A stretch of 64,000 nt of DNA from Giardia intestinalis (taxonomy: Eukaryota), in NCBI GenBank assembly GCA_000002435.2, contig CM018791.1, one strand, 5' to 3'. A program made the position numbers and the translations under genes. Under the pieces are notes generated by a model. The model searched no databases. It worked only from the letters and a program-made list of their open reading frames with translations, and was not told the origin of the DNA. Positions 6,969 to 30,913 of this stretch are shown piece by piece; position 1 is the first letter of the stretch, and each line of letters begins with the position of its first letter.

Positions 6969-9380
6969 ATGTCTGGAGAGGGGTTCAGCTATAAAGCCGG
7001 TAAGTACCCTAGCACCTCTTTGCTCGAGACCAACTGTGCATACTTATGTCCTAGTGACTATGCTGCAGTTCTTGGCAACGAGAAGTCTGATAACGTCTAC
7101 CTCGAGAGGAACGGCCACGTCGTCCTACTGAGACCGGGAAGGGGCAGCGGGTCAGTTGCAGCCCACCACGACCCCATGCCCGAGGTTCCTCAGGGCGTGA
7201 TCCTCCTGTCAACGTTTCATAGAACAAAGTGGGCAGCGCCTTTGGACAATACTCCCATCACTGTGTCACGGTCCAAGTTTGACGCCACTGCCAGAGCCAC
7301 CACTGTGGTATTCATGATCAAGCCAATGGCTAAGCAACAAAAGCCAGTGACCATAGACACGGCAAAGCTCAAGGTCCGTATTACAGAGAAATTTGTCCAC
7401 CTCCCTCTTGCTATCGGTCAGGACCTTGCCATTAGTGACGGTTCTGACTTCTTCATCTTGGGGGTTGTTGGCATGTCTGGCAAGAACAAGGAGATAGTGA
7501 GCGACGAGACCACACTTGCTTTCTATAGGGATACTGAAGCAATCTTCCAGACTCAAACAAAGGAAATAAAGCTCACCGGGGAGTACGCAGTCGCAGAAGT
7601 CTCTGCGGTGGCTAAGGCGCTGATGAATCTCATCAACGACACGCCTGAGAAGAACGAGCAGGGGGGCATAACTAACGCAGAAAGCTTAGGAATAGGGGGC
7701 CTCAATAAGCAGTTTAAGGACATATTTAGGCGCGCATTCATGTCACGAATATTTCCACCGGACAAGTTGGCAGAGCTTGGCCAGACACACGTTAAGGGTC
7801 TCCTTTTGTACGGACCACCTGGCACGGGAAAAACGTTGACAGCCAGGAAGATTGGCGAGTTGCTGAACGCGCGGCCTCCAAAGATGGTTTCCGGTCCAGA
7901 GCTTCTGGATAAGTACGTTGGCGGGTCGGAGCAGAAGGTGCGCGATCTGTTCAGTGACGCGTTTGAGGAGTGGAAAGAGCGCGAGAATGCATCTGAGCTT
8001 CACATAATCATTATCGACGAGCTTGATGCGGTATGCAAACAACGAGGCAGCAAGTCGGACAACACTGGAACAATGGACAGCCTGGTTAATCAGCTACTTG
8101 CGATGATGGACGGGCCCGACGCGCTTGGTAACGTGCTTGTGGTTGGTATGACCAACAGGAAAGAGCTTCTGGACGAGGCTCTGATGCGTCCCGGCCGCTT
8201 TGAAGTGCACCTGGAGATTGGTCTTCCCGACTGCAGAGGAAGAGAGCAGATTCTGAGGATCCACACTAAAAACCTGGTTGCTGCCAAGTCTCTTGCAAGC
8301 GATGTCGATATCGCACATCTCGCTGAGCGCACTCCTAATTTCTCTGGCGCTGAACTAGCAGGTCTTGTTAGGTCTGCTACATCCTTTGCCATGGAGCGTG
8401 CTATTGAGAAAACAAAGTCGGTGGGTCCTAACAAGTTACCCAATTTGAACAAGGTTGACGTCCTGGTGGTGGCAGAGGACTTTGAAAGGGCCCTGGGGGA
8501 GGTTACAGCAGGATACGGCCAGGCAGACCGCACGCTACTAGATGCTGCAGCGCCTTTAAGTATCCTCAAGGCTACCGGCTACGAGTCTGTCGTCCAGCAG
8601 GCTGTGTCTTTTGGAGAGGCAGTCCTAAACAGCAGTATTACTACCGGCGCTATGCTGCTTGCAGCGCCTGCAGCTGGAACTGGTTGCACAGCTCTATGCT
8701 CTGTCATTGCGAAGAGGCTTGGATGTGAGTTTGTTCGAATTATCTCTGCAGAGCAGCTTGTTATGAGGACCTCGACAGAGTATGGGCGTGCAGACCTTAT
8801 ATGTCAAATCTTTGAGGCAGCCTACAGGGTCCCGCGCGCTCTAATAATTCTGGATGGCATAGAGTCCATCATACAGTATACGCCCATTGGCTTCCGATTC
8901 TCCAGTAATGTCCTCCAGACCCTCAACGCTCTCATTTGTAGACCAGCTCCGCCTGATCATAAACTTATTGTTCTCGGCACCACTACGTGCTTGACAGCAA
9001 TGAGCGACGTTGGGCTTGCAAGTGTCTTCGGTCAGGTTTGCAACATTCCATCCCTCACCCCCGACCAAGCCCTCTGCGCGCTCTGCGAATATGCCGCTGT
9101 TGCCCCCAATCTAGAGGAAAAACGCAACGCTACCCACCAAGTTAGCGTGAAATACTATCTCCAACCAAATCCCGTCAAGTATGAGGCGTATGCTGAATAC
9201 AAGCTCTTTTTGGAGAGGCAAAAGCAGGGTATTCCCATCACGATCCGCAATGTGCTACTTGCTTATGAAATGGCAAAGGTCACTGTCCGAAAGGATGCGC
9301 TCTCTCGTAACCCCAATGCGCAACAGGCCGTGATCACCGACTCCGTAATGGCCAGGACATTGAATGCAACGCTATCCTGA
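6969..9380 (+). CDS. NSF: N-ethylmaleimide-sensitive factor (NSF), vesicle-fusion AAA+ ATPase
   Basis: The D1 domain is NSF-like (GLLLYGPPGTGKTLTARKIGELLNARPPKMVSGPELLDKYVGGSEQKVRDLF) with a Walker B IIIIDELDA. A degenerate D2 P-loop follows (APAAGTGCT). I chose the start at ATG 6969 (MSGEGFSYK) behind the A-rich leader rather than the track's 6906. Confidence 0.9.
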   Translation: MSGEGFSYKAGKYPSTSLLETNCAYLCPSDYAAVLGNEKSDNVYLERNGHVVLLRPGRGSGSVAAHHDPMPEVPQGVILLSTFHRTKWAAPLDNTPITVSRSKFDATARATTVVFMIKPMAKQQKPVTIDTAKLKVRITEKFVHLPLAIGQDLAISDGSDFFILGVVGMSGKNKEIVSDETTLAFYRDTEAIFQTQTKEIKLTGEYAVAEVSAVAKALMNLINDTPEKNEQGGITNAESLGIGGLNKQFKDIFRRAFMSRIFPPDKLAELGQTHVKGLLLYGPPGTGKTLTARKIGELLNARPPKMVSGPELLDKYVGGSEQKVRDLFSDAFEEWKERENASELHIIIIDELDAVCKQRGSKSDNTGTMDSLVNQLLAMMDGPDALGNVLVVGMTNRKELLDEALMRPGRFEVHLEIGLPDCRGREQILRIHTKNLVAAKSLASDVDIAHLAERTPNFSGAELAGLVRSATSFAMERAIEKTKSVGPNKLPNLNKVDVLVVAEDFERALGEVTAGYGQADRTLLDAAAPLSILKATGYESVVQQAVSFGEAVLNSSITTGAMLLAAPAAGTGCTALCSVIAKRLGCEFVRIISAEQLVMRTSTEYGRADLICQIFEAAYRVPRALIILDGIESIIQYTPIGFRFSSNVLQTLNALICRPAPPDHKLIVLGTTTCLTAMSDVGLASVFGQVCNIPSLTPDQALCALCEYAAVAPNLEEKRNATHQVSVKYYLQPNPVKYEAYAEYKLFLERQKQGIPITIRNVLLAYEMAKVTVRKDALSRNPNAQQAVITDSVMARTLNATLS

Positions 9381-10312
9381 AGGGCTAGCGCTGTTTTAAT
9401 AGTTGAACACAAACCCTGAGCATCCATATTGCTGTTAGACTCTGTAAATTTTGAAGCTAAGCAGCCACAAGAGTCTGCTGAACTGGTAACTGCCAACGAT
9501 GGGGTTGGATAGGCTCGGCACTGCCTGGCTACAACTATTCATGTGTGGCATTGTGGTGCAGGGAATCTCTTTATGAATTCAAGAATATAAATCCACGGAT
9601 TGAAGCAATAAGGCACGCCCTGCTTGAGTCACAATTAGGCCAGTTGTCAAGCAAGAACATAGTACAATCTGATCTGGTGCACAAATTGGCATTGTCAACC
9701 TTTAAGCCCAGCAATTAACTTGCAGCCCAAAAGTATGTCTAGCGTATGAAAAAGCACGCTATAGTCTAGTATGCAATTGGTCCAAGACTACTGATGCTGT
9801 AATAAGCTGCTGCTTTATGCAAAAGTAAAAAGTAATGGCATAAAAACTAATGTGGACGGAAAACTACAAGCCAATCACGGCTGGCACAACATATCAGCCG
9901 CACATTTTGCTCCCAAGCAGCGCCTCTCCGGCCGGAGAGGACCTGTTTGTGCACGAAGATTACTTATGGTGCCTAGAAGACCACATCTGCTTCGACAGCG
10001 TCATAGAGACAGCCTTGACCCCGGGACAGGAGCTACGAGGCACAGCCCCCACTGAGAAAGAAAGCCAACGCAATCTAGACCTTCTCCTGGCAGTAATTTG
10101 ATTCTATGCACACCGTAAGATATGGGCGGTGGAGCAGCGAAGCAACGGAGCGACGCTTTCTGATCGTAACCTGTGTTCACCTTTTCGACCTATGCACAGA
10201 TAATTACGACTTTCGCGCTCATAACGCCCGCTTTAAAATCCTTTTGTGAACCCTTTTCATTAAATCAAAGTGAAACAGTCAAAAATTCACTCTAGGCTCG
10301 ATTCTAGACCTG

Positions 10313-11218
10313 ATGTCCCTCACTGTATCCGACCTCACCACGGAGCTGAAGAAGATTATAGATAGCAAAAACGAGTCCGCTCTTGTCCAGTTGACTTCGC
10401 AGTATGCGTCGAAGCACCGAGATAAGGTTGTAATTAACTACAAGTCCATCTATGGGATGTACCCTGCCGATGCAATCAAGAAAGCTCTAAAGTCAGGGCC
10501 TGCTGAAACGCTTCTGATGTATGCGTGGACAGATGCACAGGAGGTGCGTGCACGCCTACTCAACCAGGCCCTCAGTGGCAAGAACAACAAGTCTGCACTG
10601 ATAGACGTCGTCCTCTTTTGCGGCCCAGAAGACTGGTACGAGATGGGAGCACACTACACGCGCATATTTCAGAAAGTGGCCAACGACACCCTGCTCAGTG
10701 ATATCGGCAGCTCTGAGCCGTGGTCGCAACTCATCAAGGGGTGGATCAAACACGACAGATACGAGCGCAAGGCTATTAGTGAGGATGCCGCGGCGCTCAT
10801 GGGCTACTTGGAATCTGGCAACCCCGATGGCCTGATCGATCTCCTGTGCAACACCACAGAGGGAGAGTGGAAAAAGATAAATAAGGTGTTCACAGAGAAG
10901 TACGGCGTCGAGGTGGAGACCCTTATTGCGTCCAACTACGTGAAGACAGACATGGAGGCCCTGCTTACCGCCCACTTCTACCTGCTACAGCCCGGCTATG
11001 CCGCTGCCTACCTATGCTCCCTCGCCAACTCTGGCAAAAAGGGCGATAGTGACCGGATGGTTCGCATCACCTCTCTTATGTTCGACAAGGCATTAAAGTG
11101 TAAGTTTGCGTATGAAAAGTACGGCAAGCTCGGCTCAGACTTTAAGCGCCTCTACGACGCCCGTCTCGGGCGAGCTCTTTGTGCACTTTGGCGTGTTGAC
11201 ACCGAAGGCGCAAACTAA
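10313..11218 (+). CDS. alpha-giardin (annexin-like cytoskeletal protein)
   Basis: 301 aa, alignable over its whole length with the other alpha-giardins in this window. The family C-terminus is conserved ([21 protein letters not shown]...LWRV). ATG at 10313. Confidence 0.9.
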
Positions 11219-11269
11219 AGCGTGCATTTAACAGGTGTGAATTAATAATCGGCTTTTCACTGTCCGTCA

Positions 11270-12307
11270 ATGCCTGTTCTGACCCCCATAGGCGAGCTGG
11301 CAGAGAGTCTCTACAATGCGCTTAACCTCGTAGATTTTCAGGGAGCCGTAGCACTGGGATCAAGGTATCCGGCAGACCAAAGGGACAAGGTCCTTCCGCT
11401 GTTCATCACGAGGTATGGCGAGCTGCCCTCTGATATGATAGATAGGCTTTTTAAGCCACCGCAGAGAACAATCCTTGCTTATCTGTGGTCTCAGAAGCAC
11501 GAGGTGCGGGCGGCAATCCTTCTAAATGCAATCCGCACTTCGGATTATTCTACCATGATAGATCTGATTTTTCTTTCGTCGCACTCTGACTGGGAGTCTA
11601 TCCGCACACACTACACCAAAATGTGCGGTAGACAACTTGATGCCGATATCATCGGCAGCGTCAAGCCGAGTAAAAAGGAGGCTGCCCCAATATGGCCAGC
11701 TCTTGCCGAGGCCTGGCTACGTGGGACGCGTTCTGAGCGATACAATCCAGCAAACGAATCAGTACAGCTGGTGAATGCCATCAAACGGAAGGATTTCTCT
11801 GCCATAATATGGCTGATTGCCAATACGGTGTCCAGCGAGTGGGAAAAGATCGTTGCCATTACAGAGGAGGCCCTTGGGAGTACCCTTGAGGAGTTCTTTC
11901 TATGCAATCTTTCGTACGCAGATTGTGCGGCTTTCAGCATGGGTACAGGCGCTTTGATTAATCCCGGCCTTGGGGCAGCATTCGCCATATCCCGGGCCTG
12001 CTTTACGAATTACGAAGGAAAAGGGAAAGACACCCCCAAGGTGGAAAGGTCGGCCTCCAGACAGATGAAGGGATCAAAAAAGTTGAAAACTGGTACAATA
12101 AAGTTCGAGGAGACCCGCTCTTCCAAGAAGGGTGCAGAGTACAAGGGAGATGTGTCCCGACTAATCCGTGTATCGTCTCTCTTCTTCGACTCTTGTAATA
12201 AATGTAAGTTCTTCTATCGCAAGTACGGATCACTAGCAGCAGATCTGCGCTCTGGATTCGCGCCACCTTTATGCGAGGCCTTCATGCGGCTCTGGGATGT
12301 GGATTAG
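11270..12307 (+). CDS. alpha-giardin-like protein with a lysine-rich insertion in the last annexin repeat
   Basis: Same architecture as the neighbouring gene (…IRVSSLFFDSCNKCKFFYRKYG…LWDVD). It is about 40 aa longer because of the insert NYEGKGKDTPKVERSASRQMKGSKKLKTGTIKFEETRSSKKGAEYKG (about 12006-12150). Confidence 0.85.
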   Translation: MPVLTPIGELAESLYNALNLVDFQGAVALGSRYPADQRDKVLPLFITRYGELPSDMIDRLFKPPQRTILAYLWSQKHEVRAAILLNAIRTSDYSTMIDLIFLSSHSDWESIRTHYTKMCGRQLDADIIGSVKPSKKEAAPIWPALAEAWLRGTRSERYNPANESVQLVNAIKRKDFSAIIWLIANTVSSEWEKIVAITEEALGSTLEEFFLCNLSYADCAAFSMGTGALINPGLGAAFAISRACFTNYEGKGKDTPKVERSASRQMKGSKKLKTGTIKFEETRSSKKGAEYKGDVSRLIRVSSLFFDSCNKCKFFYRKYGSLAADLRSGFAPPLCEAFMRLWDVD

Positions 12308-12353
12308 TGCTTCGCTGTTAAACAGGGTAAACTGACGGACTTTAAAATTTTGG

Positions 12354-15300
12354 ATGCCCGCTCCGGTCTACTCTCACCAGCTAGACCGTGCACAGCCAGC
12401 GCAAAATGGAACACACTATCATCCATATGCAAAAGATGATAACATTCGCATTGAAGATCTCCAACAGCCGTCTGTTCAACTTCAGGGCAGAGATAACTAT
12501 GCAAATTTGCAGTCCATGAATGATGATCTAATGGCTTGCATATCAAACTCAGAATACACTCTAAGCAGTATTAGGCGTGACATGCAGAATCAAGCAAGGG
12601 CTTTGGGTACTAAGGCCAGCGTAAATCCAGAACTCAACGGTACTTCAAGTCCACAACAGCTAGGCCTTTCTAGGGGAGCGTCTCGCGGCGTCTCAGCAAC
12701 AACACCATCTAGACGCTACCATGACCAGGCCGACCCTCGTCCCATAGTTAGAGAGCGGCCCATGTCAGCTGACTCTGTGCGGTCTAACCTGGGCATCGCA
12801 ACCACAGAGAGCAGTGATCTCGAGGATCTGTTCATGCTTACCCCTCGATCATATGGTGTACTGGCCTCACAGCAGCCGGATTTTGCGTCATCACAGCACA
12901 TTCAGCAACGCGGGCATCGAGTTGCCAACAACAAGGATCTGTCACAGTACTATGAGGAGATAGACGCCGTAACAGCATTCAACGAGGGAATCATGCGTGA
13001 GAAGGCAGTTACAATAGATGCGTTAGAAAGGAACCTCAAGACTCTGAAGGTGGAACTAAACATAAAGGACAGGGAGATGGCTGCTGCAAGAGAACGGATA
13101 GCAGAGCTTGTTAAGGAGGTTACAGAGCGTGACAGCGAGATAAAAGGCCTCAAACATAAATTAGAAAATGTTAAACACAACGCAGAGCGGTTTATTCTGG
13201 CACGCGATGAGGAGATCGCACGTTTGGCTGAGGAGCTGGAGCAGATGGATGAGCACTATCAGCAGAAGATGAAATTGAAAGACTCTAAGCTCCACGCACA
13301 GCACGAAGAGCTAGTTCTTTTAACTGCTAAGGATGATGAAATAGCAGGACTTAGAAGCAAGCTATCGGTCCTTACAGAGCAGCTAGAGCACACAGAAAAC
13401 ACGTTTAAGGCAATAGTCAAGAGCAAAGATGAGCAGATAGAGACGCTGAAGGCCGATGTTCATGCTAAGCGTGACTATAGCCTTGAGCTCCAGCGCATCC
13501 ACGAAAGTCTATCTCAAGTTCGCAAGGACTGTGAGGAGCAGTTGCATCAGAAAGATGCCGAACTTTCCAAGCAGCGGGAGCAAGTGGAGACTGCTGAGAA
13601 GGAAAGGAGTTTGCTAGAAAATGAAGTTACTTCACTAAAGGCCATTGTAGAAAAGCAGGAGGATCTGGTTATCAAGCTCAAGGGGCAATTGGAGCGCAGT
13701 AATCCAGACGTTGAGCGACTGCAGCAGGAGCTCGATACTCTTCGAATAGAGTCACAGAAGGCTATTTCGGCCAAGGTCATAGAAGCTGAAGAGTTGAAGA
13801 GCAAGATTCACACATTAACGACTGAAATGCTCATGCTACCGACGCAGGAAGATATCCTTGAGGCACGAAACGAGGTTTCCAAGGTCACTGCATCTATGGC
13901 TGCCATGATTAAGACAAAAGATGCAGAGATCCTCAGTCTGAGGAGAAAGCTTGAAGACTATGTTGAACTATCGGAAGTTCAGCGACTGAAGGGAGAGCTT
14001 ACTCTTTCTAAGGCAGCGCTGGCAGATACCATTGTACAGAAGACGGCAGAAATCAGAGACTTGAAAGAGGAGATGGCAATTCTTCAAATCGATGAACATG
14101 CATCTGGAGCTCCTTCTGATGGTGGCAGCTTTGATGACAAGTTAAAGGACTTGGAGTCTAGTCAGAATGCGCTCGAAGTATCACTAGGCACGCAAGTTGA
14201 ACTAGGAGCGCTAAAGCGAATTTATAAGGAGGCGATGCTCGCCAGGGACCACCAGATTAAAACTCTTTCCCAGAGGATCAATGACGCAGACGCAGAGCTT
14301 GCCACTTATCGTGAGCGCATTGCTCATCTTGAAAGCACCTCGAAGGAAGCGCCCCATATGCAAGAACGTCCTGCTACAGATTCTGCTTCACCAGCCATCC
14401 ACGACCTGAGAAGCGAACTACAAAGCGTTAAGGACGCCATGGCTGCTGCAATGGTCCGTAATATGCGAGAAGTGGCTACCCTAGAACACCAAATAAACCA
14501 ACTGAAAGGTGAGAATGAGTCACTAAGGATAAAGAGGGACGATACCGTGGAGACTGTATCAATAGGCATCTGTTGTGAGCCTGAGGAGCAGAACGGTCGC
14601 GTGTCCTTTGAAGCGAGATATGCAAAATGTAGTCAGGAAAATGAGCGCCTCTCCAATGAGCTTCAGCTTATTGCACAGGAGCTGGCTAAGACACGGACGG
14701 CGTATTCAGACGTCATGAAGCAACTCAGCGGTCTGAACACAGAGCTGCTAATCACAAGAAACCAGGCTAGCGACGCGCTCAACACTCAGGCCCTTCTGGA
14801 GTCTACTCTGCAGGAGTATGAAAGGGAGGTAAGGACGCTGCGCGGTAGTCTTGAGAGCTCACTCCAGCAAAACAGAGAAGCCGATAGTGTCAACACTAAG
14901 TTGCAGGAGAGCCTCTCAGAGTCCCAGCTCTACGATCTTCAGCAAAAACTAGAGAAGTCACAGGCAGATTTAGAGCGACTGCGGGACGACTATAGCACCA
15001 TGCAAGCAACTAAGGATATGGTCATTCACAAGATCTCATCAGAGGTTATCCATCAACGCGAAATGGTTGACTTAGCCGGAGAAGACATGAACAGAAGGCT
15101 AAAGGAGGCCGAGGAAACAGTAGAAAGGCTCAATAACGAGCTTCTGACACAAAAAGAGGAGTTTGTGACGGTCGTGACAGATCTAGAACAGCAAGTGGAG
15201 AAGCTAAGCGCAGAATTACAAGGATCTCGTGAGTCTAATGAAGCCCTGATTGCACGGATGATGCGTGACATTACAGGCCTAGAAAAGGAGCGTAGCGATT

Positions 15301-18535: not shown

Positions 18536-19623
18536 GAAATGCCCGATTTGTTAATATTTACTATTACGCAAAATATACAGGAACAAAGATGGTCCCCTTG
18601 AAGAGGCCAGTGAAGAAGATAGTTCCCTCCCTGCCCACAGAGTCTACGTGACGCTACGGGCTCTTATTGCTGAAGTACTTGCTGACTAATTAAACTAAGC
18701 TCTTTGATAGAAAATAGATCATCGCACTACATAGGAGAATTGCATGCACAATAGCCTTACCGGCAGATAGGTAAAAAGCGAATGAAAAATTGTATTGTAC
18801 TATGAGCCAAACTTTATCTTATAAAGATTGAGGAATCCCAGGTAATATATAACGGTTTGAATGCCAGCAAGATTCGCGACCGCAGAGCACACTGCAATCT
18901 GGCGACTGGTTTGGCCATGCCGCTTCTTTATCCGTTAGAAACTCGGCTGGGAGCGACAAAGAGCACGTCGGGAGAACCCGGTGGGAGGGGACAGGCGGGG
19001 CTTTCTGCGCCACGGGGGGAACCACCGCAGGAGGACGTGCAGGCACGCAAGCCAGGCCACAGTAGACACGCGGGCGCCCCTGTAGACCGGGCCGGCAGCA
19101 GGCGTCCGTAGAATCCGCGCCAGAGCCAGCTGCTCAAAAAACTGGGCAGCCCCTGGTCGTGTGCAAGCCTTGCAGAGCACTGCGGCCCCCGACACTCGGC
19201 GACCCCTCTCAGAGCGGAAGACCCCGCGGGCCGCAGGCAGCAGCTCGTCGTCGGCGATGCCCCGAACGAGGGGGACGGCCCCAGCCTGCCCGCCTCCGCA
19301 GAGCTCCGGGTATCTGTAGACAAACCGGGGCTGCGCAGGGTGCGGCTCTCCCTGGCGGCCGAGGGCAGGGGTCCCCGGCAATACCAAAAAACTCCGATCA
19401 ATACATCAGCCCCGGCGCCGCCGTGTGCAAAGCAGTCTGTTCTGTGTGGCGGCCCAAGCCAGCTCGTACTGCGGCGATGGCCCGGGTGAGGGCGCCCTGC
19501 TCGCCCGACGGACCGGGGCAGGCAGGCAACAAACACCCGCTAAAGCTTTTATGCAAGGCCTGTACATATTTAATTTCACATTATTCGTTGGTCTGTTTTT
19601 AGTTTTATCGCTGCTTCTATCGG

Positions 19624-20433
19624 ATGGGCTCTGGGGCAATGACGGCGGAGACGCGCGCCTCCGTTCTGCTCGAGCTCGCGAAGCAGGTCGTCGCTGCCCG
19701 GCGGCTGGGAGAGACGGCCGAGAGCCTCGCGCGGCGGCCGCTGCTCCTCCACCGGCACGTGCTCCGGACGGCCATCGACTGGAAGAAGATCGCCCGCGCC
19801 CTGTCCGAGGACCGGAGCAGGATCTACCACTGGTACCGCGAGACGCACTCGCGGAGCATCCTCAACGTGAAGATGACCGGCGAGGACCGCAGGGCCATCA
19901 AGGCGATGATCATCGCCGGGGTCAGGGACCGGAGCGTCCTGGGCCCGGACTTCTACCGCAGGGTCCACGAGCGCTTCGGGGCGAAGTATCCGCGCCAGGA
20001 GCTGCGGATGACGTACAACAACGCGCTCCGCACCCAGGACGTCCGCGCCGCCCTGGAGGAGCACGGGGTGGTGCTGCCGCGCCGCACATACGGCCCGAGG
20101 GCGGCCAGGCAGGAGGAGGAGGCATCTCCTGTGGCGGCCACTCCCCCGCCCCCCTGCGTTTTTGGTTGCGCCGCGCCTCCGCTGGTGCCGCCCGTCGGGG
20201 GGCCGGTCTTTGTGGTCCCGGGCGCGGTCTCTGCGCTTCTGCCCCCGCACGCGCCGGGGTGCCTCGTCCTCGCCCTCCCACCCGGGGTCGTTCCTGGGCC
20301 CGGCGTCCTCCCGCTCCAGACGGGCCAGGGCCTCCTTGGGCCGCCCGTTGCCTTCGCGTGCGTGCCATGCTTCCCCCCTGCGGGCTACGGGGGCGTCCCT
20401 GGGTGCGCTGATGCGAGCCCCAGTAAGGGTTGA
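19624..20433 (+). CDS. Arm gene, copy 1: Myb/SANT-like helix-turn-helix protein with a proline-rich C-terminal tail (269 aa)
   Basis: The ATG is preceded by the only A/T-rich block in this part of the arm (19560-19623, catatttaatttcacattattcg…). Codon third positions are almost all G/C in this frame only. About 40% identity by eye over ~100 aa with the gene at 53268..54242 (IDWKKIARAL..YHWYRETH / MTGEDRRAI / RMTYNNALRTQDVRAAL). In both, exactly 50 residues precede the conserved W. Confidence 0.7.
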   Translation: MGSGAMTAETRASVLLELAKQVVAARRLGETAESLARRPLLLHRHVLRTAIDWKKIARALSEDRSRIYHWYRETHSRSILNVKMTGEDRRAIKAMIIAGVRDRSVLGPDFYRRVHERFGAKYPRQELRMTYNNALRTQDVRAALEEHGVVLPRRTYGPRAARQEEEASPVAATPPPPCVFGCAAPPLVPPVGGPVFVVPGAVSALLPPHAPGCLVLALPPGVVPGPGVLPLQTGQGLLGPPVAFACVPCFPPAGYGGVPGCADASPSKG

Positions 20434-20546
20434 GGACTGGAGAACCCGGCTTGCTTGACGATTGTCGAAGAGTGGCCGGCAGGAACAGCCGATGGTTGGA
20501 TCCCTGATCAGTGACGAGACAGTTATATCTAGAGCGTGTAGCATGC

Positions 20547-21262
20547 TCAACCACGGCACAGCGCAGGGCCCACCAGACACAGGCTACGACGGTCTGGATG
20601 TCGCGCAACCCGCATTCTGCGCATTGCTGAAGAGACCACACACAGCAGACGAAGGCAGGGCTCTCCCATGTGCCCAGACGACTCGAACACCGCGGTCTGG
20701 GCCAACGATCTACCAGACAGGCCCGTCCGGTAACAGGCGACTGAATGCTCTCTGGGCCGTGAGCTAAAGCTGATGTGCAGCTGGCCGGCCACGACATTCA
20801 CCCTGGCTGGCCCTCTGTCTTCACGCGCCGACACGCCAAGGAGCTGTAGGGAAGTCGTGTGCTGTCTTGGCAGGTATATTATTACCTCCATGTATGCACC
20901 CTGGATGCGGCCACCATAGCACAGCTGCATCTCTGATCGTCCTGTACACGCCTCCTGGCACGAGTAGGTGCGCAGGAGGGGGTGCACTGCCCACCGCCGA
21001 GAAATGGATGAGCTCCCCTGCTCAGGAGCCGACGACCGCCAGCCATGCCCAACGAGGTCCCCTGCAAGGAGGCCTGCTGAGCCAGCTCTTCCAGCGAGCC
21101 GTGTATCTGGAAGAGCTCCGCGTTGAATGGCTCCTTGATTAAGGAAGCCGGAGTCCAGCGCGATGTGACGCCTGTCCGTCTAAGGCTGAGACTTCGGTCT
21201 GGTGCTTGCTGCTGAGCGAGCATTAAATGAGGCTGGCCAAAGAAGCGGCTCAGGGCTTTCAT
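20547..21262 (-). pseudogene. Possible frameshifted gene in the arm (two same-strand overlapping ORFs)
   Basis: ORF 20882..21298 (ATG at 21262, MKALSRFFGQ…) and ORF 20547..20987 overlap on the same strand in different frames. Both have coding-like composition. No homology recognised. Mirrored exactly at 27823..28538. Confidence 0.25.
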
Positions 21263-23312
21263 AGCTCTGTGTCTTCTTGTTCTGTTCGACTGAAACACCT
21301 GATCTCAGTGCTGACTGTTGGGTCTCCTCCTGTGGACGTGGTCCGGAAGTCTCACAGAGGACCTGTTTTTTTGTAATTTCTTCTAAGACGAAGGTAAGTC
21401 GTTCTATAGGATTAGGACTACATCTGTAGAAGCACAGCCCCGGTTAAAGCAGTAACATACAATTCGCAGATGCGTAGAATGCTTGCAGGAGAAAGCAGTA
21501 AGGAAAGATATCTCGATCATGACATAGACGTGAGACAGCACCACAGGCTGCCCAAGCAACCGGTCTGGATACGAGGTGCGGCATGATTACCCTTATCTAT
21601 CCTTTGCCAGGTGAGGGAATTCGACATAGAGCCTAGTCACCCTAACGGTCAGAACCAAAGGCAAAAGCTAGACCTGTGGTGTGTTGGCAAGTGATGGACA
21701 CAAGGGCATCCCTGGATGGACTGTTGCATGAGAGGGCGAAGGCCCATAGAGATGGGTTGCTCTCAGCACCTGCAGTGGGCAGCTTGCTCCGCGGCCAACA
21801 AGTTGTTGGGTCAGAAACAAGCACGGACGATGCCTGTCAGATGGGTCCGAGCCAGTCACCCGATGCCCCCTACGGGCCTCGTCCAACCGACACTCTTGAT
21901 TCTTGTCGAATAGCTCAGACAGACTGGGGAGAGGAAGGACTACCAGTCACCAGAGCTTGCTGCAGTGGGAGAGCCGGGCTTGGCTCGTCCCCGTCTTCAC
22001 ACAAGAGCGGGGAAGTGGGTTTACTTGCGGGACCCTTGGGCCGCGGCTGCAGGGGGGCTCAGTACTAGAGCGCTAGAAATAGCTGGCTGTCGAAGTAAAT
22101 CGTCGCTTTCCGGGGATGACATCTTCCTCGACCAGGGCAGCAGAAGAGACCCTCAATGCATCTGCCGGTGCTGGGGTGCGTCCTACCCGTCAGCGGGGCT
22201 TCATGGCTCCACTGGAAAGCCCAATCGTCCGCTTCTTGCTGTGCTCAGAGGACAGAGAACTAGGCAGGCGTAGTCCCATCCGCCCACCGGAGGGCTATGA
22301 GCGCCCCCGTCGTCCCATTGAGCAGCACCAGGCGCAGAAGAGGTCTGCCGGAAATGCGCCAGATGCAGTCAACGCTTTTCTGGGTGTAGTGTTAACAGAA
22401 TCACACGCTACGACGCGTCCCAGACAGGCTCCACCTGGCAGCGGCGCCCCAGAGGCGGGCCCCGAGGGACAAAACATTTCTGGCCCTGCCCCTGCTCCAA
22501 TGCGAGCGGCCCGCGGACAGAGCCGAGGACGGGGGCCAGTGCTCGGCCTCCTGCTGGTGCGGTGGCGCCGGGAGACCACCGGACCATCGACTCGGCAGCG
22601 GCAACCGGTGGAACGCCCTGGGCTGCTGCTGTGCCCATGCGCCTGGAGCGCGCCGCAGCAGCCCGGGATGGGTCCGCAGACAGGCGTGCCGCCCCAGCCG
22701 TCCCGGGGGCCGGCTCCTCGTGGCGGGCGCTCCTGCTCCCTTTGACTTTTCAAATGGAGAACGCAGTTATGGATCCTAGTTCTGCTGCAGAAGGTGCCTT
22801 ATGAGACGCAGCACAGCCACACCAAGCGGTATCGGGGCTGAACACTCCTTGGGACGGGCTCCTGGCGCATCTGAGAGACGCTCGTTGCTGTGCACTGCCT
22901 CTCGGGCCTTGGATGCACGTTGTGCAGAGCTGCAGGAGTCGCCCTTGCAGTTGTCAGTGGGCCGTTGATGGAGCCATTGAAAGCTCTGGACCGCTACTGG
23001 GCAGTACTGTCCCAGTGCACGTGTGGCAGCTTTGGCTCGCACTGGATGGTCCGTACAGATTGCAACGGAGCCACGAGGTGCATTAGTATGACATACACAT
23101 TGAGACAGTTGCAGTTCTATTCGGTCCAATCCACCTCCTTCTGGCCCTGTGCCGAGATTGCAGATTGCAAGTAGTGTTCGCGATAGACCCGGTGAGTGTT
23201 GATTCCATCAGCGCCTGTGGTCAACGTGTGCCAGAAGGATCAATCAACTGCATCAATCGACGCGGATTGACTGATGTACCGCGAGTATGTTCCTACCAAT
23301 CTATCAATCGGG

Positions 23313-23319
23313 CAATGTT
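23313..23319 (+). promoter_or_regulatory. vsp initiator-like context (CAATGTT) around the start codon
   Basis: The sequence caATGtt fits the PyA-ATG-TT initiator context that I recall being reported for many vsp genes. The assignment is from memory of the vsp literature and is not independently testable here. Confidence 0.35.
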
Positions 23320-25534
23320 TGGCAGTTTTGTTCTCGCGGGGGTACTCGTCCAGATTGCATGGGCAGGAAAAGCAACAGAGCGCGCGCAAGAAGCTCAATG
23401 CGCAGATAACACTAATTGCGCAGCAGAAGCATGCAACGTTCTGATCGGTGGTAAATTGTATTGCTCTCGATGTAACACAGGATTTGTTCCTATCAATGGA
23501 CAATGTGCAGACAAAGAAGGTGCAACAGATAAGTGCAAAGATGGCTCCGGAGGCGATACAGCTGATCAGACCTGTGGACAGTGCGCCGAGCAGACTTTCA
23601 TGTACAAGGGCGGCTGTTACGAAGCAGCCCAGCAGCCCGGACAGACCATGTGTCAGGCGGCAGATGCTGGAGTATGCACACAAGCCGCGCAAGGATACTT
23701 CGTGCCGCCGGGCGCAGACGCCTCTCACCAATCGGTTATACCATGTGGAGACGAAGAGGAAATAACGGTTAAAAACGATAAAAAGTACAAGGGCGTGCTG
23801 CACTGCACTCGGTGTAACGCTCCCACAGAAGCAGCAGATGCTAACGCCAAGGCCGCCACATGCACTGCGTGCCAGGCAGATAGGTATCTGAAGACAGCCA
23901 AGGACCAAGCCACCTCCTGCGTGACAGAGCAAGAGTGCACCGGCACCGAAGGGTTCTTCGCGAAAAATGGCGGCACCAAAACCTGTGAGGCGTGCGCTGA
24001 AACATGCAAGACCTGTAAGACCGAGGCTGCGAAGTGCACCTCTTGCAAGGACGACAAGCCGTACCTGAAGAAGGATAATGGCAGCGACACTGGCACGTGC
24101 GTCACCGAAGCTGAGTGCAAGACTGGAAACACCCACTACCCCGACGACACTGAGCCGAAGACGTGCAAGACGTGCGCCGAGGGGACCTCCGACGGGTGTG
24201 CGACGTGCGAGAAGGGCGCCGATGGAGCAGTCGCCTGCAAGACGTGCGGAAACCAGAAGAAGGTCCAGCCAAACAAGAAGGGGTGCGTTGAGAACTGCCC
24301 CTCGAACTCCAACGATAAGAAGACCCCTGGCACCTGTGAGTGCGTTGAGGGCTACGTTCCCGAGGAGGCCGGCACCGGGTGCACGAAGAAGCCCGACCCC
24401 CCTGCGGCGCCGTGCAACACCCCCGGCTGCAAGACGTGCAGTGAGCCGAAGACAAGCAAGGAGGTGTGCACAGAGTGCGAAGACCCCAAGGCCCTCACGC
24501 CCACGGGCCAGTGCATCTACGGTTGTGAGCACCTGGAAGGCTACTACGAGGGCACCAGCGAGGGGGGCAAGAAGGCCTGCAAGAAGTGCGAGGTCGAGAA
24601 CTGCCTCCTGTGCAACGAAAACGGACAGTGCGAGACCTGCAAGGACGGATACTACAAGAAAGAAACCGCCTGTGCCAAGTGCGATACCTCGTGCAAGACG
24701 TGCGCGAACGGGGAGCCCAACGGGTGCACGAGCTGCGAGGCTAAGAAGGCCCTCAGCTACGAAGGAGAGGGCAACACGGGGACGTGCAAATCAGAATGCA
24801 AACCGGGTACTAACAACTGCGAGAAGTGCGAGCTGACAGTCGATGGCACGGCCTACTGCTCCAAGTGCAAGGACGCCAACCAGTTCCCGCAGAACGGAGT
24901 CTGCTCGGCGGCGGCCGGAAAGGCTATTACGTGCACTACCAAAGGGACTGGTGTCTGTGACAAATGCGCCAACGGGCTTCTTCGGATGAACGGAGGCTGC
25001 TATGAGACGACCAAGTTCCCTGGAAAGAGCGTCTGTGAGGAAGCAGCATCGGCTGGGGATACCTGCCAAGTAGAGGCTCCAGGCTATCATCTTAATAACA
25101 ATGACCTTGTGACTTGCTCGGCCGGATGTAAGACGTGCACTAGTAACACCGTGTGTACTGAATGCATGGATGGGTATGCAAAGACTGATAATAAGTGCAC
25201 AAAGTGTGCCACTGGCTGTGCTACTTGTGCAGGATCCGCCTCAAATTGCGACACTTGCAGCACTGGGTACTACAAGTATAAGAACGCCTGTGTGTCTTGC
25301 ACGGAAAGCAACAGTGATAAGACTATCACCGGCGTCGCCAACTGCGCCAACTGCGCTCCTCCACTCAACAATAAAGGGTCTGTCCTCTGCTACCTCGTGC
25401 AGAGTGGCGAGAACACTAACAAAAGTGGTCTCAGCGCAGGCGCCATCGCGGGCATCGCTGTTGCTGTCATCATTGTTGTCGGCGGCCTCGTCGGTTTCCT
25501 TTGCTGGTGGTTTATGTGCAGAGGCAAGGCGTAG
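23315..25534 (+). CDS. Variant-specific surface protein (VSP), 739 aa
   Basis: Signal peptide MFGSFVLAGVLVQIAWAG, about 28 CXXC motifs and two GGCY motifs (KGGCYEA, NGGCYET). C-terminal TM helix followed by the invariant cytoplasmic tail CRGKA (…GFLCWWFMCRGKA*). The track start at 23165 is a TTG; the signal peptide begins at ATG 23315. Confidence 0.95.
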   Translation: MFGSFVLAGVLVQIAWAGKATERAQEAQCADNTNCAAEACNVLIGGKLYCSRCNTGFVPINGQCADKEGATDKCKDGSGGDTADQTCGQCAEQTFMYKGGCYEAAQQPGQTMCQAADAGVCTQAAQGYFVPPGADASHQSVIPCGDEEEITVKNDKKYKGVLHCTRCNAPTEAADANAKAATCTACQADRYLKTAKDQATSCVTEQECTGTEGFFAKNGGTKTCEACAETCKTCKTEAAKCTSCKDDKPYLKKDNGSDTGTCVTEAECKTGNTHYPDDTEPKTCKTCAEGTSDGCATCEKGADGAVACKTCGNQKKVQPNKKGCVENCPSNSNDKKTPGTCECVEGYVPEEAGTGCTKKPDPPAAPCNTPGCKTCSEPKTSKEVCTECEDPKALTPTGQCIYGCEHLEGYYEGTSEGGKKACKKCEVENCLLCNENGQCETCKDGYYKKETACAKCDTSCKTCANGEPNGCTSCEAKKALSYEGEGNTGTCKSECKPGTNNCEKCELTVDGTAYCSKCKDANQFPQNGVCSAAAGKAITCTTKGTGVCDKCANGLLRMNGGCYETTKFPGKSVCEEAASAGDTCQVEAPGYHLNNNDLVTCSAGCKTCTSNTVCTECMDGYAKTDNKCTKCATGCATCAGSASNCDTCSTGYYKYKNACVSCTESNSDKTITGVANCANCAPPLNNKGSVLCYLVQSGENTNKSGLSAGAIAGIAVAVIIVVGGLVGFLCWWFMCRGKA

Positions 25535-25549
25535 ACTTAGATAGTAAAT
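25535..25549 (+). terminator. Extended vsp poly(A) signal ACTTAGATAGTAAAT
   Basis: It lies immediately after the TAG stop (25532-25534). It matches the vsp consensus ACTYAGRTAGTRAAY, which contains the general Giardia poly(A) signal AGTRAAY. Confidence 0.8.
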
Positions 25550-27822
25550 GCGTCGATTCGCCTTCTTAAGGCGTGGAACTCTCGTTACGTCCACACTGCA
25601 AATGTGCTTGACGATTTCTAACATCTGGATTTTGTATAGCAGTCTGGAGTCGTGTGTGTGACTTTACTTTTATTCCACACTTCCAATAGTTTGCCACTGG
25701 ACTTCGCCTGCAAATGCAGCCTAGGAGTGCATGAATAAATAAACTTACATGTCTTCTTGGTAGAGCAAAGCAGACCCCTACTTGAGGACTTGGACCCGCT
25801 ACTCTATGCTTGTATCTGACGTAGTCGCACTTAGCCAAGGTGCACACCCTACTATCACTCGATAGCTCACCCTCTCGTTGTCTTAAAGGAGCAGCTCTTA
25901 GACTGCTGCCCAGTTGACTTTACCAAGTACTTGCTTATTTAAGCGAACTGTGAACGAACTTTCTGAATACCAGGTGAACCCTTATATCTAAAGACTACGA
26001 CACGTTCCTCATGTTCCAGTTCTACTGTAGTGACCTGTGAGGATGGTTGTATCCAATCTCAGTCCTCCAGCATATAGAGTATACACTAGTAACCATTTGT
26101 ACTTCATAACCTGTCTTTGTCTTCGAACGTGACTGAGCGACCGGATTATTCGCATGGGTTTAGCCCATATCTAAATAAGATCGAGAAGAGGCCACAAGAA
26201 TACTTTCTATAGCAAAGCTGGAGCTGCTAGCTACATATGCAACAGTTAGCCCCGCACCAGCAATCGATGCAACGGGGATGTGTGCCCACCCGAGCAGTAC
26301 ACAGCTGGCTACCCGTAATTATGCTCTCCATTTGAAAAGTCAAAGGGAGCAGGAGCGCCCGCCACGAGGAGCCGGCCCCCGGGACGGCTGGGGCGGCACG
26401 CCTGTCTGCGGACCCATCCCGGGCTGCTGCGGCGCGCTCCAGGCGCATGGGCACAGCAGCAGCCCAGGGCGTTCCACCGGTTGCCGCTGCCGAGTCGATG
26501 GTCCGGTGGTCTCCCGGCGCCACCGCACCAGCAGGAGGCCGAGCACTGGCCCCCGTCCTCGGCTCTGTCCGCGGGCCGCTCGCATTGGAGCAGGGGCAGG
26601 GCCAGAAATGTTTTGTCCCTCGGGGCCCGCCTCTGGGGCGCCGCTGCCAGGTGGAGCCTGTCTGGGACGCGTCGTAGCGTGTGATTCTGTTAACACTACA
26701 CCCAGAAAAGCGTTGACTGCATCTGGCGCATTTCCGGCAGACCTCTTCTGCGCCTGGTGCTGCTCAATGGGACGACGGGGGCGCTCATAGCCCTCCGGTG
26801 GGCGGATGGGACTACGCCTGCCTAGTTCTCTGTCCTCTGAGCACAGCAAGAAGCGGACGATTGGGCTTTCCAGTGGAGCCATGAAGCCCCGCTGACGGGT
26901 AGGACGCACCCCAGCACCGGCAGATGCATTGAGGGTCTCTTCTGCTGCCCTGGTCGAGGAAGATGTCATCCCCGGAAAGCGACGATTTACTTCGACAGCC
27001 AGCTATTTCTAGCGCTCTAGTACTGAGCCCCCCTGCAGCCGCGGCCCAAGGGTCCCGCAAGTAAACCCACTTCCCCGCTCTTGTGTGAAGACGGGGACGA
27101 GCCAAGCCCGGCTCTCCCACTGCAGCAAGCTCTGGTGACTGGTAGTCCTTCCTCTCCCCAGTCTGTCTGAGCTATTCGACAAGAATCAAGAGTGTCGGTT
27201 GGACGAGGCCCGTAGGGGGCATCGGGTGACTGGCTCGGACCCATCTGACAGGCATCGTCCGTGCTTGTTTCTGACCCAACAACTTGTTGGCCGCGGAGCA
27301 AGCTGCCCACTGCAGGTGCTGAGAGCAACCCATCTCTATGGGCCTTCGCCCTCTCATGCAACAGTCCATCCAGGGATGCCCTTGTGTCCATCACTTGCCA
27401 ACACACCACAGATCTAGCTTTTGCCTTTGGTTCTGACCGTTAGGGTGACTAGGCTCTATGTCGAATTCCCTCACCTGGCAAAGGATAGATAAGGGTAATC
27501 ATGCCGCACCTCGTATCCAGACCGGTTGCTTGGGCAGCCTGTGGTGCTGTCTCACGTCTATGTCATGATCGAGATATCTTTCCTTACTGCTTTCTCCTGC
27601 AAGCATTCTACGCATCTGCGAATTGTATGTTACTGCTTTAACCGGGGCTGTGCTTCTACAGATGTAGTCCTAATCCTATAGAACGACTTACCTTCGTCTT
27701 AGAAGAAATTACAAAAAAACAGGTCCTCTGTGAGACTTCCGGACCACGTCCACAGGAGGAGACCCAACAGTCAGCACTGAGATCAGGTGTTTCAGTCGAA
27801 CAGAACAAGAAGACACAGAGCT

Positions 27823-28538
27823 ATGAAAGCCCTGAGCCGCTTCTTTGGCCAGCCTCATTTAATGCTCGCTCAGCAGCAAGCACCAGACCGAAGTCTCAGC
27901 CTTAGACGGACAGGCGTCACATCGCGCTGGACTCCGGCTTCCTTAATCAAGGAGCCATTCAACGCGGAGCTCTTCCAGATACACGGCTCGCTGGAAGAGC
28001 TGGCTCAGCAGGCCTCCTTGCAGGGGACCTCGTTGGGCATGGCTGGCGGTCGTCGGCTCCTGAGCAGGGGAGCTCATCCATTTCTCGGCGGTGGGCAGTG
28101 CACCCCCTCCTGCGCACCTACTCGTGCCAGGAGGCGTGTACAGGACGATCAGAGATGCAGCTGTGCTATGGTGGCCGCATCCAGGGTGCATACATGGAGG
28201 TAATAATATACCTGCCAAGACAGCACACGACTTCCCTACAGCTCCTTGGCGTGTCGGCGCGTGAAGACAGAGGGCCAGCCAGGGTGAATGTCGTGGCCGG
28301 CCAGCTGCACATCAGCTTTAGCTCACGGCCCAGAGAGCATTCAGTCGCCTGTTACCGGACGGGCCTGTCTGGTAGATCGTTGGCCCAGACCGCGGTGTTC
28401 GAGTCGTCTGGGCACATGGGAGAGCCCTGCCTTCGTCTGCTGTGTGTGGTCTCTTCAGCAATGCGCAGAATGCGGGTTGCGCGACATCCAGACCGTCGTA
28501 GCCTGTGTCTGGTGGGCCCTGCGCTGTGCCGTGGTTGA
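27823..28538 (+). pseudogene. Mirror copy of the possible frameshifted arm gene
   Basis: ORFs 27787..28203 and 28098..28538 are identical in translation to 20882..21298 and 20547..20987. Confidence 0.25.
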
Positions 28539-28651
28539 GCATGCTACACGCTCTAGATATAACTGTCTCGTCACTGATCAGGGATCCAACCATCGGCTGT
28601 TCCTGCCGGCCACTCTTCGACAATCGTCAAGCAAGCCGGGTTCTCCAGTCC

Positions 28652-29461
28652 TCAACCCTTACTGGGGCTCGCATCAGCGCACCCAGGGACGCCCCCGTAG
28701 CCCGCAGGGGGGAAGCATGGCACGCACGCGAAGGCAACGGGCGGCCCAAGGAGGCCCTGGCCCGTCTGGAGCGGGAGGACGCCGGGCCCAGGAACGACCC
28801 CGGGTGGGAGGGCGAGGACGAGGCACCCCGGCGCGTGCGGGGGCAGAAGCGCAGAGACCGCGCCCGGGACCACAAAGACCGGCCCCCCGACGGGCGGCAC
28901 CAGCGGAGGCGCGGCGCAACCAAAAACGCAGGGGGGCGGGGGAGTGGCCGCCACAGGAGATGCCTCCTCCTCCTGCCTGGCCGCCCTCGGGCCGTATGTG
29001 CGGCGCGGCAGCACCACCCCGTGCTCCTCCAGGGCGGCGCGGACGTCCTGGGTGCGGAGCGCGTTGTTGTACGTCATCCGCAGCTCCTGGCGCGGATACT
29101 TCGCCCCGAAGCGCTCGTGGACCCTGCGGTAGAAGTCCGGGCCCAGGACGCTCCGGTCCCTGACCCCGGCGATGATCATCGCCTTGATGGCCCTGCGGTC
29201 CTCGCCGGTCATCTTCACGTTGAGGATGCTCCGCGAGTGCGTCTCGCGGTACCAGTGGTAGATCCTGCTCCGGTCCTCGGACAGGGCGCGGGCGATCTTC
29301 TTCCAGTCGATGGCCGTCCGGAGCACGTGCCGGTGGAGGAGCAGCGGCCGCCGCGCGAGGCTCTCGGCCGTCTCTCCCAGCCGCCGGGCAGCGACGACCT
29401 GCTTCGCGAGCTCGAGCAGAACGGAGGCGCGCGTCTCCGCCGTCATTGCCCCAGAGCCCAT
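28652..29461 (-). CDS. Arm gene, copy 2: Myb/SANT-like protein with proline-rich tail (269 aa)
   Basis: The translation is identical to 19624..20433. The same A/T-rich leader is mirrored at 29462-29525. Confidence 0.7.
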   Translation of the reverse strand: MGSGAMTAETRASVLLELAKQVVAARRLGETAESLARRPLLLHRHVLRTAIDWKKIARALSEDRSRIYHWYRETHSRSILNVKMTGEDRRAIKAMIIAGVRDRSVLGPDFYRRVHERFGAKYPRQELRMTYNNALRTQDVRAALEEHGVVLPRRTYGPRAARQEEEASPVAATPPPPCVFGCAAPPLVPPVGGPVFVVPGAVSALLPPHAPGCLVLALPPGVVPGPGVLPLQTGQGLLGPPVAFACVPCFPPAGYGGVPGCADASPSKG

Positions 29462-30913
29462 CCGATAGAAGCAGCGATAAAACTAAAAACAGACCAACGA
29501 ATAATGTGAAATTAAATATGTACAGGCCTTGCATAAAAGCTTTAGCGGGTGTTTGTTGCCTGCCTGCCCCGGTCCGTCGGGCGAGCAGGGCGCCCTCACC
29601 CGGGCCATCGCCGCAGTACGAGCTGGCTTGGGCCGCCACACAGAACAGACTGCTTTGCACACGGCGGCGCCGGGGCTGATGTATTGATCGGAGTTTTTTG
29701 GTATTGCCGGGGACCCCTGCCCTCGGCCGCCAGGGAGAGCCGCACCCTGCGCAGCCCCGGTTTGTCTACAGATACCCGGAGCTCTGCGGAGGCGGGCAGG
29801 CTGGGGCCGTCCCCCTCGTTCGGGGCATCGCCGACGACGAGCTGCTGCCTGCGGCCCGCGGGGTCTTCCGCTCTGAGAGGGGTCGCCGAGTGTCGGGGGC
29901 CGCAGTGCTCTGCAAGGCTTGCACACGACCAGGGGCTGCCCAGTTTTTTGAGCAGCTGGCTCTGGCGCGGATTCTACGGACGCCTGCTGCCGGCCCGGTC
30001 TACAGGGGCGCCCGCGTGTCTACTGTGGCCTGGCTTGCGTGCCTGCACGTCCTCCTGCGGTGGTTCCCCCCGTGGCGCAGAAAGCCCCGCCTGTCCCCTC
30101 CCACCGGGTTCTCCCGACGTGCTCTTTGTCGCTCCCAGCCGAGTTTCTAACGGATAAAGAAGCGGCATGGCCAAACCAGTCGCCAGATTGCAGTGTGCTC
30201 TGCAGCCGGGGATCTTGCTGGCATCTCACGCGACCGGGCTCTGGGTGTGCCTGCTCAACAGTAGCTACCTCATCCACAGAGTGCTGATGCAGATATTATG
30301 CGCTACGTATCAGTGACCACAGGGGCACCGATAGACAGGGTCTCAGCCTCAGTGCACAACGAAGGTTATCAAGCATAGCGAGGCTTACATACTGAGCATG
30401 GGTCCGTGCCCCGCGTGGTCTTCTTAAGAACTAGTGCATGAGTGTTTGTGAGACGATGCTATCCGTATGAGGCGGGCTATCCGTCGTACGCGAAGTGCAG
30501 TACGGCAGAAGTGGGTGATGCAGGAACCAGAGGGGGTGCTTCAGCACATCAGTCGTCGGCCCCTCTGCCTTCTGTCACGCCTGATGGACTCTCCTCTACT
30601 ATCGCAACTCAGTCGTGGTTGTCTGAGGAGAGGACTAGGTATTCAGTAGACAATGGAATCGCGTGGCCTGGACGCGATTTCGTGATGGCCAACACGGGTT
30701 ATCAGGCTGGCTGTGGTCTGGATATGTGGTACAGCTTCCTTCACTCAAGCAGGGGTTAACACCTGCACTAATACAGATCTACAATAAGACATACACCATG
30801 CCCAGTACAGTTGAAAGATAAAACAGAAAGATATTATATTAAACGATAGTTATATTTGCCGTCAATTGTTATTAATAGAGCTAACACCCCTGGTCAAAAA
30901 AACGTTCGCTGTG

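Follow-up and report, generated by a model that had tools for sequence, protein, structure and literature searches.

Why are the two arms of a near-perfect palindrome in Giardia intestinalis so much richer in G+C than the DNA around them? The palindrome lies in a stretch of 64,000 nucleotides (nt) of GenBank assembly GCA_000002435.2, contig CM018791.1 (hereafter the window), where inverted arms of 3912 nt enclose a gene for a variant-specific surface protein (VSP), and each arm codes for an identical Myb-like protein of 269 residues. A preliminary description had recognized the arms as a GC-rich island and favoured GC-biased gene conversion (gBGC), driven by recombination between the arms, as its cause. 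The observation is correct, while the favoured mechanism is mostly wrong. The island is probably a property of the duplicated sequence, an old dispersed Myb-like unit, and not a product of the palindrome, with GC-biased fixation tied to exchange between the copies of that unit.

GC composition of the palindrome arms

The arms contain 63.0% G+C, the spacer that separates them 53.9% and the remainder of the window 49.3%. Windows of 3912 nt placed outside the palindrome average 49.4% (standard deviation, sd, 1.4%) and never rise above 52.4%. Recomputation of the 60-nt lines that had been counted by hand gives 78% (line at 19681), 65% (21001) and 70% (22441) in the arm, against 57% (18601) and 45% (18721) outside. 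GC content changes sharply at the outer arm boundaries when followed along the sequence in sliding windows, and is uneven within the arm: 68% in its outer part (18861-20395; 68.4%), 49% over the 500 nt of 21251-21750, which is the genome average though this stretch lies inside the identical arms, and 68% at 22300-22772. The elements on which the argument rests are the following (positions in the window).

18861-22772, strand not applicable: left arm of the inverted repeat, 63.0% GC, defined by repeat finder, GC content and arm-to-arm comparison
26313-30224, strand not applicable: right arm of the inverted repeat, 63.0% GC
18861-20395, plus strand: core of the dispersed GC-rich repeat unit, left copy, 68.4% GC, made of 763 nt of non-coding-like upstream DNA and most of the 269-residue gene
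28690-30270, minus strand: core unit in the right arm; positions 9191-10754 of contig L005 from isolate DH align to window 30270-28690 at 94.2%
19624-20433, plus strand: 269-residue gene, left copy, one of the identical pair GL50803_0060974 and GL50803_00d60974 (KAE8302586, KAE8302588)
28652-29461, minus strand: identical second copy of the 269-residue gene, the other member of the GL50803_0060974/d60974 pair, KAE8302588 by gene order
20434-22772, strand not applicable: inner 2.3 kb of the arm, non-coding-looking, 59-60% GC overall, with the 49% dip at 21251-21750 and the second 68% peak at 22300-22772
53268-54242, plus strand: normal-GC paralogue GL50803_0014552, GC 53%, GC3 0.58

The enrichment culminates in the 269-residue gene, whose GC content is 72% and whose G+C fractions at the first, second and third codon positions (GC1, GC2 and GC3) are 0.73, 0.55 and 0.885, with a GC3 of 0.96 over codons 1-150. 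The near saturation of its third positions by G or C, and the contrast drawn earlier with the paralogue at 53268, were both confirmed: the paralogue, 36% identical to the 269-residue protein over 192 residues (E = 8e-30), has values of 0.57, 0.44 and 0.58. Among 25 other long open reading frames (ORFs) of the window GC3 is 0.551 +/- 0.068 with a maximum of 0.80, which leaves the arm gene about 4.9 sd out. Genome-wide, Giardia genes have a mean GC3 of 51.7% and a GC content ranging from 39 to 81% (sd 5.2%; PMC8393687).

The arms do carry the long open frames that had been described, namely many overlapping ORFs of 100-334 residues on both strands, in keeping with a scarcity of stop codons. Codon periodicity is confined to 19624-~20100, where GC3 reaches 0.97-0.99, and is absent from the remaining ~3.1 kb per arm, a non-coding fraction of 60.6% GC. 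No Pfam domain was found in five individually tested arm ORFs (including 18928-19536) or in the six frames of 20434-23164. Genes or pseudogenes hidden in the rest of the arm were rejected on the lack of periodicity and of Pfam domains and on a tblastn comparison with the DH locus that matches all frames alike, a homology of non-coding type. That a ribosomal RNA or another known RNA underlies the arm composition was rejected as well: Rfam yields no match at gathering score in the whole window, and at E <= 1 over 18700-23200 one chance match only (Guanidine-II, E = 0.68).

The dispersed Myb-like unit and its age

Each arm consists, over its outer ~1.5 kb, of one member of a dispersed multi-copy repeat family. 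Homology to the copies of isolates DH and P15 begins exactly at the outer arm boundary (18861); identity is 94-95% until 20395 and homology then becomes patchy, at 68% nucleotide identity to the DH locus and without favouring any reading frame. The left core unit is 94.8% identical to positions 9238-10754 of DH contig L005, which represents a different locus, and 82% identical to P15 contig L001. Indels of 1, 2 and 4 nt separate the copies within the 763 nt upstream of the gene, which marks this region as non-protein-coding. Since arm and unit share their outer boundary, the sharp GC step at the arm edge is inherited with the unit. On the right-arm side the homology to copies from elsewhere in the genomes goes on for 46 nt past the arm end (30225-30270 against L005 9191-9237), while on the left it stops at 18861; the right arm thus looks more complete and is possibly the original, the left arm being derived.

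A protein cluster at 90% contains five further loci of isolate WB (GL50803_0061066, 00103981, 00137682, 00114778 and 00112150) plus the DH protein DHA2_153281. With the palindrome pair, the family amounts to at least seven WB copies of at least 95% identity, carried by four chromosome-sized contigs (1.54, 1.97, 2.76 and 4.02 Mb). GL50803_00103981 and DHA2_153281 diverge completely after "...PPAGYGG", which is the inner end of the highly conserved unit. Short-read assemblies of AI type stop at 18890-18911, 30-50 nt into the arm, in six listed contigs (L014-L019 and L020 loci examined), five of them identical to WB over the first 1500 nt and one 98.5% identical; contig L020, also WB-identical, reaches 18989, and the DH contig at the RING locus stops 460 nt into the arm. 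The breaks at 18890-18911 fit a repeat at that position in many isolates, which explains the assembly gaps.

GC-richness is not limited to the palindromic copies. The DH gene on the 129-kb contig L005 is flanked by Rer1, a Cpn60/TCP1-family (chaperonin) gene and kinesin on one side and by an ankyrin-repeat gene and others on the opposite one. Within 10 kb on each side of it lie neither an inverted repeat nor, among the called genes, a VSP. This copy has a GC content of 72% and a GC3 of 0.90, and lies within an island of ~5 kb (~9250-14500). At the same kinesin locus of P15 (assemblage E; L001) the contig ends inside the gene, and the partial copy has 70% GC and a GC3 of 0.95. The copy of GS_B (assemblage B), located between a VSP gene and a NEK kinase gene, has 69% GC and a GC3 of 0.85. 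Differences between assemblage A and P15 are balanced, with 77 sites that are G/C in A and A/T in P15, 65 of the reverse type and overall GC of 67% and 66%, which argues for an old and stationary GC-rich state. As judged from these copies, GC-richness predates the A/E/B split and is thus older than the present arms, which are 99.97% identical. In a neighbour-joining tree of the conserved domain the GC-rich genes form one clade. Its sister gene (P0008/L004, Logan assembly) has 41% GC and a GC3 of 0.38 in AT-rich surroundings, and the P0011/L006 clade a GC3 of 0.49 in a context of 46% GC. The low or normal GC of the sister gene and of the paralogues indicates that the enrichment arose on the branch that gave rise to G. 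duodenalis A/B/E.

The start codon of the 269-residue gene is surrounded by a stretch of about 110 nt (19530-19640; 29445-29555 in the other arm) that hardly varies between the copies of WB, the AII-like isolate, DH and P15. This stretch is identical or nearly so among assemblage A copies and shows ~6 changes in P15; its AT-rich core, TGTACATATTTAATTTCACATTATTC, is invariant in five of five copies. Beyond this stretch the compared unit differs on average by 4-17%, and its outer 460 nt by 25-27%. The stretch is thus unusually constrained and may be a promoter or leader element.

The AlphaFold model of the 269-residue protein, built from an alignment of 18 sequences, features two regions: an all-helical domain with a predicted local distance difference test (pLDDT) score >90 over approximately residues 10-150, and residues 159-269, predicted to be disordered (pLDDT below 50). 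The amino-terminal helical domain of the model appears Myb/SANT-like, and the protein is a putative Myb-type DNA binder, at most a candidate member of a defined Myb family. The best Pfam Myb/SANT score, to Myb_DNA-bind_8, is below threshold and concerns the paralogue only (E = 0.038, 13.8 bits against a cutoff of 27). A PDB sequence search with the family profile gave no match, and Foldseek against PDB nothing significant. No papers on the gene identifiers of the family were found in the searchable literature, nor was any account there of a multi-copy Myb-like unit as the GC peak.

Signs of exchange between copies and possible causes of the GC enrichment

The composition of the unit bears on the type of force that shaped it. 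At four-fold sites of the 269-residue gene C (0.47) and G (0.48) are equally frequent, alike in the A, E and B copies. The disordered tail (~20100-20433, the carboxyl-terminal 110 codons) is rich in Pro, Gly, Ala and Val in the GC-rich clade and in Ser, Thr, Asn and Gln in the normal-GC relatives; base composition seems to have pulled its amino-acid content with it. The shift of all site classes, with G equal to C, suggests a pressure that is compositional and strand-symmetric, and not a tRNA-matched codon selection. The high GC of non-coding arm DNA, the raised values at all three codon positions and the strand symmetry are all features that gBGC leaves. A local example of codon bias of the selection type, contrasting with the arm gene, is provided by the annexin/alpha-giardin-like gene at 58297-59187 (plus strand): its GC3 is 0.80, its GC1 and GC2 are normal, and its four-fold sites have C 0.56 and G 0.20.

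The palindrome itself is a single inverted pair in the repeat-finder analysis of the window, with no further copies of arm or spacer found elsewhere in its 64 kb. Base-by-base comparison reveals that the arms are exactly identical from ~18882 to 22760 save for one mismatch (21673/27412); identity decays across the last ~10-20 nt at each end, where a few extra mismatches are found. Exact look-ups identify the gene order as RING-finger gene (KAE8302585), 269-residue gene, VSP gene, inverted 269-residue gene and RRP4 (KAE8302589), that is KAE8302585-89 of Giardia WB. The features between the arms are:

22773-26312, strand not applicable: unique spacer separating the arms, 3540 nt, 53.9% GC
23315-25534, plus strand: VSP gene within the spacer, "VSP with INR", KAE8302587, exact protein match, Pfam VSP domain E = 2.6e-153

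The VSP gene has 56% GC and a GC3 of 0.65-0.66, and its product ends in a CRGKA tail. It holds a 50-nt direct repeat (24162-24211/24690-24739, 76% identity) that reflects the CXXC-repeat structure and is ordinary for VSPs.

Over the 1.5-kb unit the WB (RING locus), AII-like (RING locus) and DH (kinesin locus) copies are equidistant (4.3-4.6%) and all differ by 16-17% from P15. Yet DH and P15 carry their copies at orthologous positions, with flanks that are 13.5% apart. The three possible groupings of the three assemblage A copies are supported by 11, 9 and 6 informative sites, a mosaic distribution. Between WB and the AII-like isolate the whole arm differs by 5.5% and the non-coding arm DNA by 6.35%, against 2.5% at flanking third codon positions and 3.5% in flanking intergenic DNA. 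In the outer 460 nt (18861-19321 against L012 1-461 and L005 9238-9707) WB and DH, compared at one and the same locus, are 8.7% apart, against 1.4% in the flank. The unit diverges 2-6 times as much as its flanks. The two DH copies, at the RING and the kinesin loci, differ by 8.7% over the same 460 nt, and simple per-genome concerted evolution was rejected on this ground. The unit is thus hypervariable and mosaic, as it would be if diverged copies had served as a pool of donors for patchy conversion. In a 2025 population study, gene-conversion tracts of assemblage A are enriched in GC (0.541 against 0.488) and in VSPs and have a median length of 3.3 kb (PMC12669663).

The mechanism favoured in the preliminary description, in which exchange from arm to arm within the palindrome drove GC-biased conversion and raised the GC of the arms, has in its favour that the arms are nearly identical to each other while distant from the AII-like arm, as under ongoing homogenization, that GC changes sharply at their outer boundaries, and that in an AII-like contig the left arm is followed by the far end of the spacer, as predicted by flip-flop. 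It is, however, very improbable, as the DH copy is equally GC-rich at a locus without palindrome, the P15 and GS_B copies are GC-rich too, and the composition is older than the split of the assemblages. In addition, an average GC is found at 21251-21750 in spite of arm identity, the boundary step came with the dispersed unit, and since diverging from the other assemblage A copies the palindromic WB copy has undergone 4 AT-to-GC and 10 GC-to-AT changes. Selection for translationally optimal G- or C-ending codons in a highly expressed gene could account for the extreme GC3: the 26 optimal codons of Giardia all end in G or C (PMC8393687), and the GC3 of the conserved domain is far above the GC of the adjacent non-coding DNA. 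As the cause of the island it is improbable all the same, considering that the non-coding-like DNA of each arm, ~3.1 kb, likewise has 61% GC, that GC1 and GC2 are raised, that the amino-acid content of the tail is altered, and that C equals G at four-fold sites, unlike in the C-biased annexin-like gene.

The preliminary description had also allowed for a foreign or relocated segment. The second part is near the mark, the outer ~1.5 kb being a copy of a dispersed repeat. The first part, understood as a horizontally acquired island, a transposon or a retroelement relic with a composition of its own, has little chance of being right. All 19 of 19 homologues are Giardia-like, the named ones all being from Giardia and the unnamed ones clustering with those, and the normal-GC paralogues and low-GC sister gene place the origin of the GC-rich state inside Giardia. 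Neither the six frames of 20434-23164 nor the individually tested ORFs contain a reverse transcriptase, a transposase or any other Pfam domain, there are no terminal inverted repeats or target-site duplications at the aligned boundaries (two loci compared), and homology decays gradually at the inner end without a sharp stop. Equally small is the probability that the GC-rich non-coding DNA is kept by selection for a function, be it that of a chromatin or regulatory island controlling the VSP or that of a structured or other non-coding RNA. A role of high-GC islands in VSP regulation was suggested by Franzen et al. (PMC2723961), blocks upstream of the gene are conserved between assemblages A and E, and the ~110 nt at the ATG are identical or nearly so in all copies. 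Against such a function, the DH island at the kinesin locus has no VSP within 10 kb, most of the non-coding arm DNA changes at about twice the rate of nearby neutral proxies, and Rfam gives no family match.

A broader gBGC-like process acting through exchange among dispersed copies is therefore the best but unproven explanation. Ancient GC-biased fixation, by a gBGC-like repair bias or a local mutation bias, would have raised the GC of the unit in connection with frequent non-allelic exchange among the copies of the family, and the enrichment would now be roughly stationary. Conversion between the arms would keep the two WB arms identical but would not have made them GC-rich. The remainder of the arm and the VSP gene would represent the kind of high-GC island already described at Giardia VSP loci. 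Several results weigh against this account. Lineage-specific changes polarized with P15 as outgroup number 12 AT-to-GC and 32 GC-to-AT (equilibrium GC ~0.43), in small counts that cover the most recent branch only and whose polarization could be confounded by unsampled paralogues; any GC-raising force is consequently past or acts only at fixation. The GC3 of 0.96-0.99 in the conserved domain is far above the 0.61-0.64 GC of neighbouring non-coding DNA, leaving room for some codon-level selection or for a constraint that keeps AT in the non-coding parts. The distance between the two DH copies means that homogenization within a genome is far from complete. The extent and GC of the unit at the five other WB loci are deduced from protein identity only, and GC-biased repair is itself inferred.

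The AII-like isolate (ENA ERZ28528424, NODE_591, a metagenome contig) has its left flank and arm running into the right-inner end of the spacer, in reversed orientation. The junction (L003 13040-14062, same contig as L011; window 26342-25322) matches right-inner and not left-inner sequence. The VSP spacer is thus opposite to its WB orientation, which reflects either an inversion by flip-flop recombination of the arms or the route that the assembler took. It is conceivable, though unlikely in its entirety, that ongoing non-allelic conversion drove the Myb-like unit, at no fewer than seven sites on four chromosomes, to a GC3 of 0.96-0.99 and recoded its tail, and that the palindrome may flip the VSP gene it encloses. 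Sub-assemblage AI has been argued to be asexual, and to our knowledge meiotic recombination is unproven in it; the unit would then be a compact gBGC-like example in this sub-assemblage. Antigenic variation of Giardia is thought to be free of DNA rearrangement, and flipping of the VSP gene would be a rearrangement at an antigen locus.

Comparison with known systems

The explanation of the island changes in that the palindrome keeps its arms identical but inherited its composition from a pre-existing GC-rich repeat family. Attention is drawn to an unstudied multi-copy Myb-like family (GL50803_0060974, d60974, 0061066, 103981, 137682, 114778 and 112150) that marks fast-evolving, assembly-breaking GC islands, sometimes adjoining VSPs, and that would be a convenient natural system for asking whether a diplomonad shows GC bias in its mitotic or ectopic gene conversion. 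Nothing is overturned: both the high-GC islands of VSP loci and the inverted duplications of WB have already been published (2009/2010 and 2020, respectively).

The protein family differs from SNAPC4, R2R3-MYB, c-Myb, TRF1, Reb1 and Rap1 in having no above-threshold Pfam Myb model and in being found only in Giardia-like sequences. The palindrome resembles the inverted pairs of the WB long-read genome, in which the "d" tag denotes duplicated genes, 6.9% of the genome is duplicated and 19 inverted VSP pairs are listed (Xu et al. 2020, PMC7000408). Common features are a near-perfect inverted duplication a few kb long, a spacer of ~3 kb, the "d" tag and resolution by long reads only. The VSPs are the duplicated genes in the published pairs, whereas here the VSP is a single-copy spacer gene and the duplicated gene codes for a hypothetical Myb-like protein.

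High-GC islands at VSP loci of Giardia were reported by Franzen et al. 2009 (PMC2723961), Jerlstrom-Hultqvist et al. 2010 (PMC3091692) and in the preprint of Rodriguez-Walker et al. 2022 (10.1101/2022.03.07.483299). The region 18861-30224, VSP included, conforms to them with 54-63% GC against 49.3% outside: it is a discrete island above the 49% genome average around a VSP, in a synteny-variable place and with an atypical nucleotide signature. It departs from them in that the peak is the flanking Myb-like unit (68-72%) and not the VSP (56%). The enrichment does not depend on a VSP either, the unit and its 5-kb island being present at the DH locus of contig L005 that is VSP-free within 10 kb.

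Relative to gBGC as known from mammalian and avian hotspots, from sex-chromosome palindromes and from the conversion tracts of Giardia (PMC12669663), the unit is distinguished by the missing excess of AT-to-GC changes (12, against 32 of the reverse type) and by an enrichment that is independent of the palindrome. It shares with these systems a strand-symmetric bias that extends over coding DNA, non-coding DNA and amino acids in a multi-copy, mosaic sequence, and the size of unit and arm (1.5-4 kb) resembles the 3.3-kb median of the Giardia tracts.

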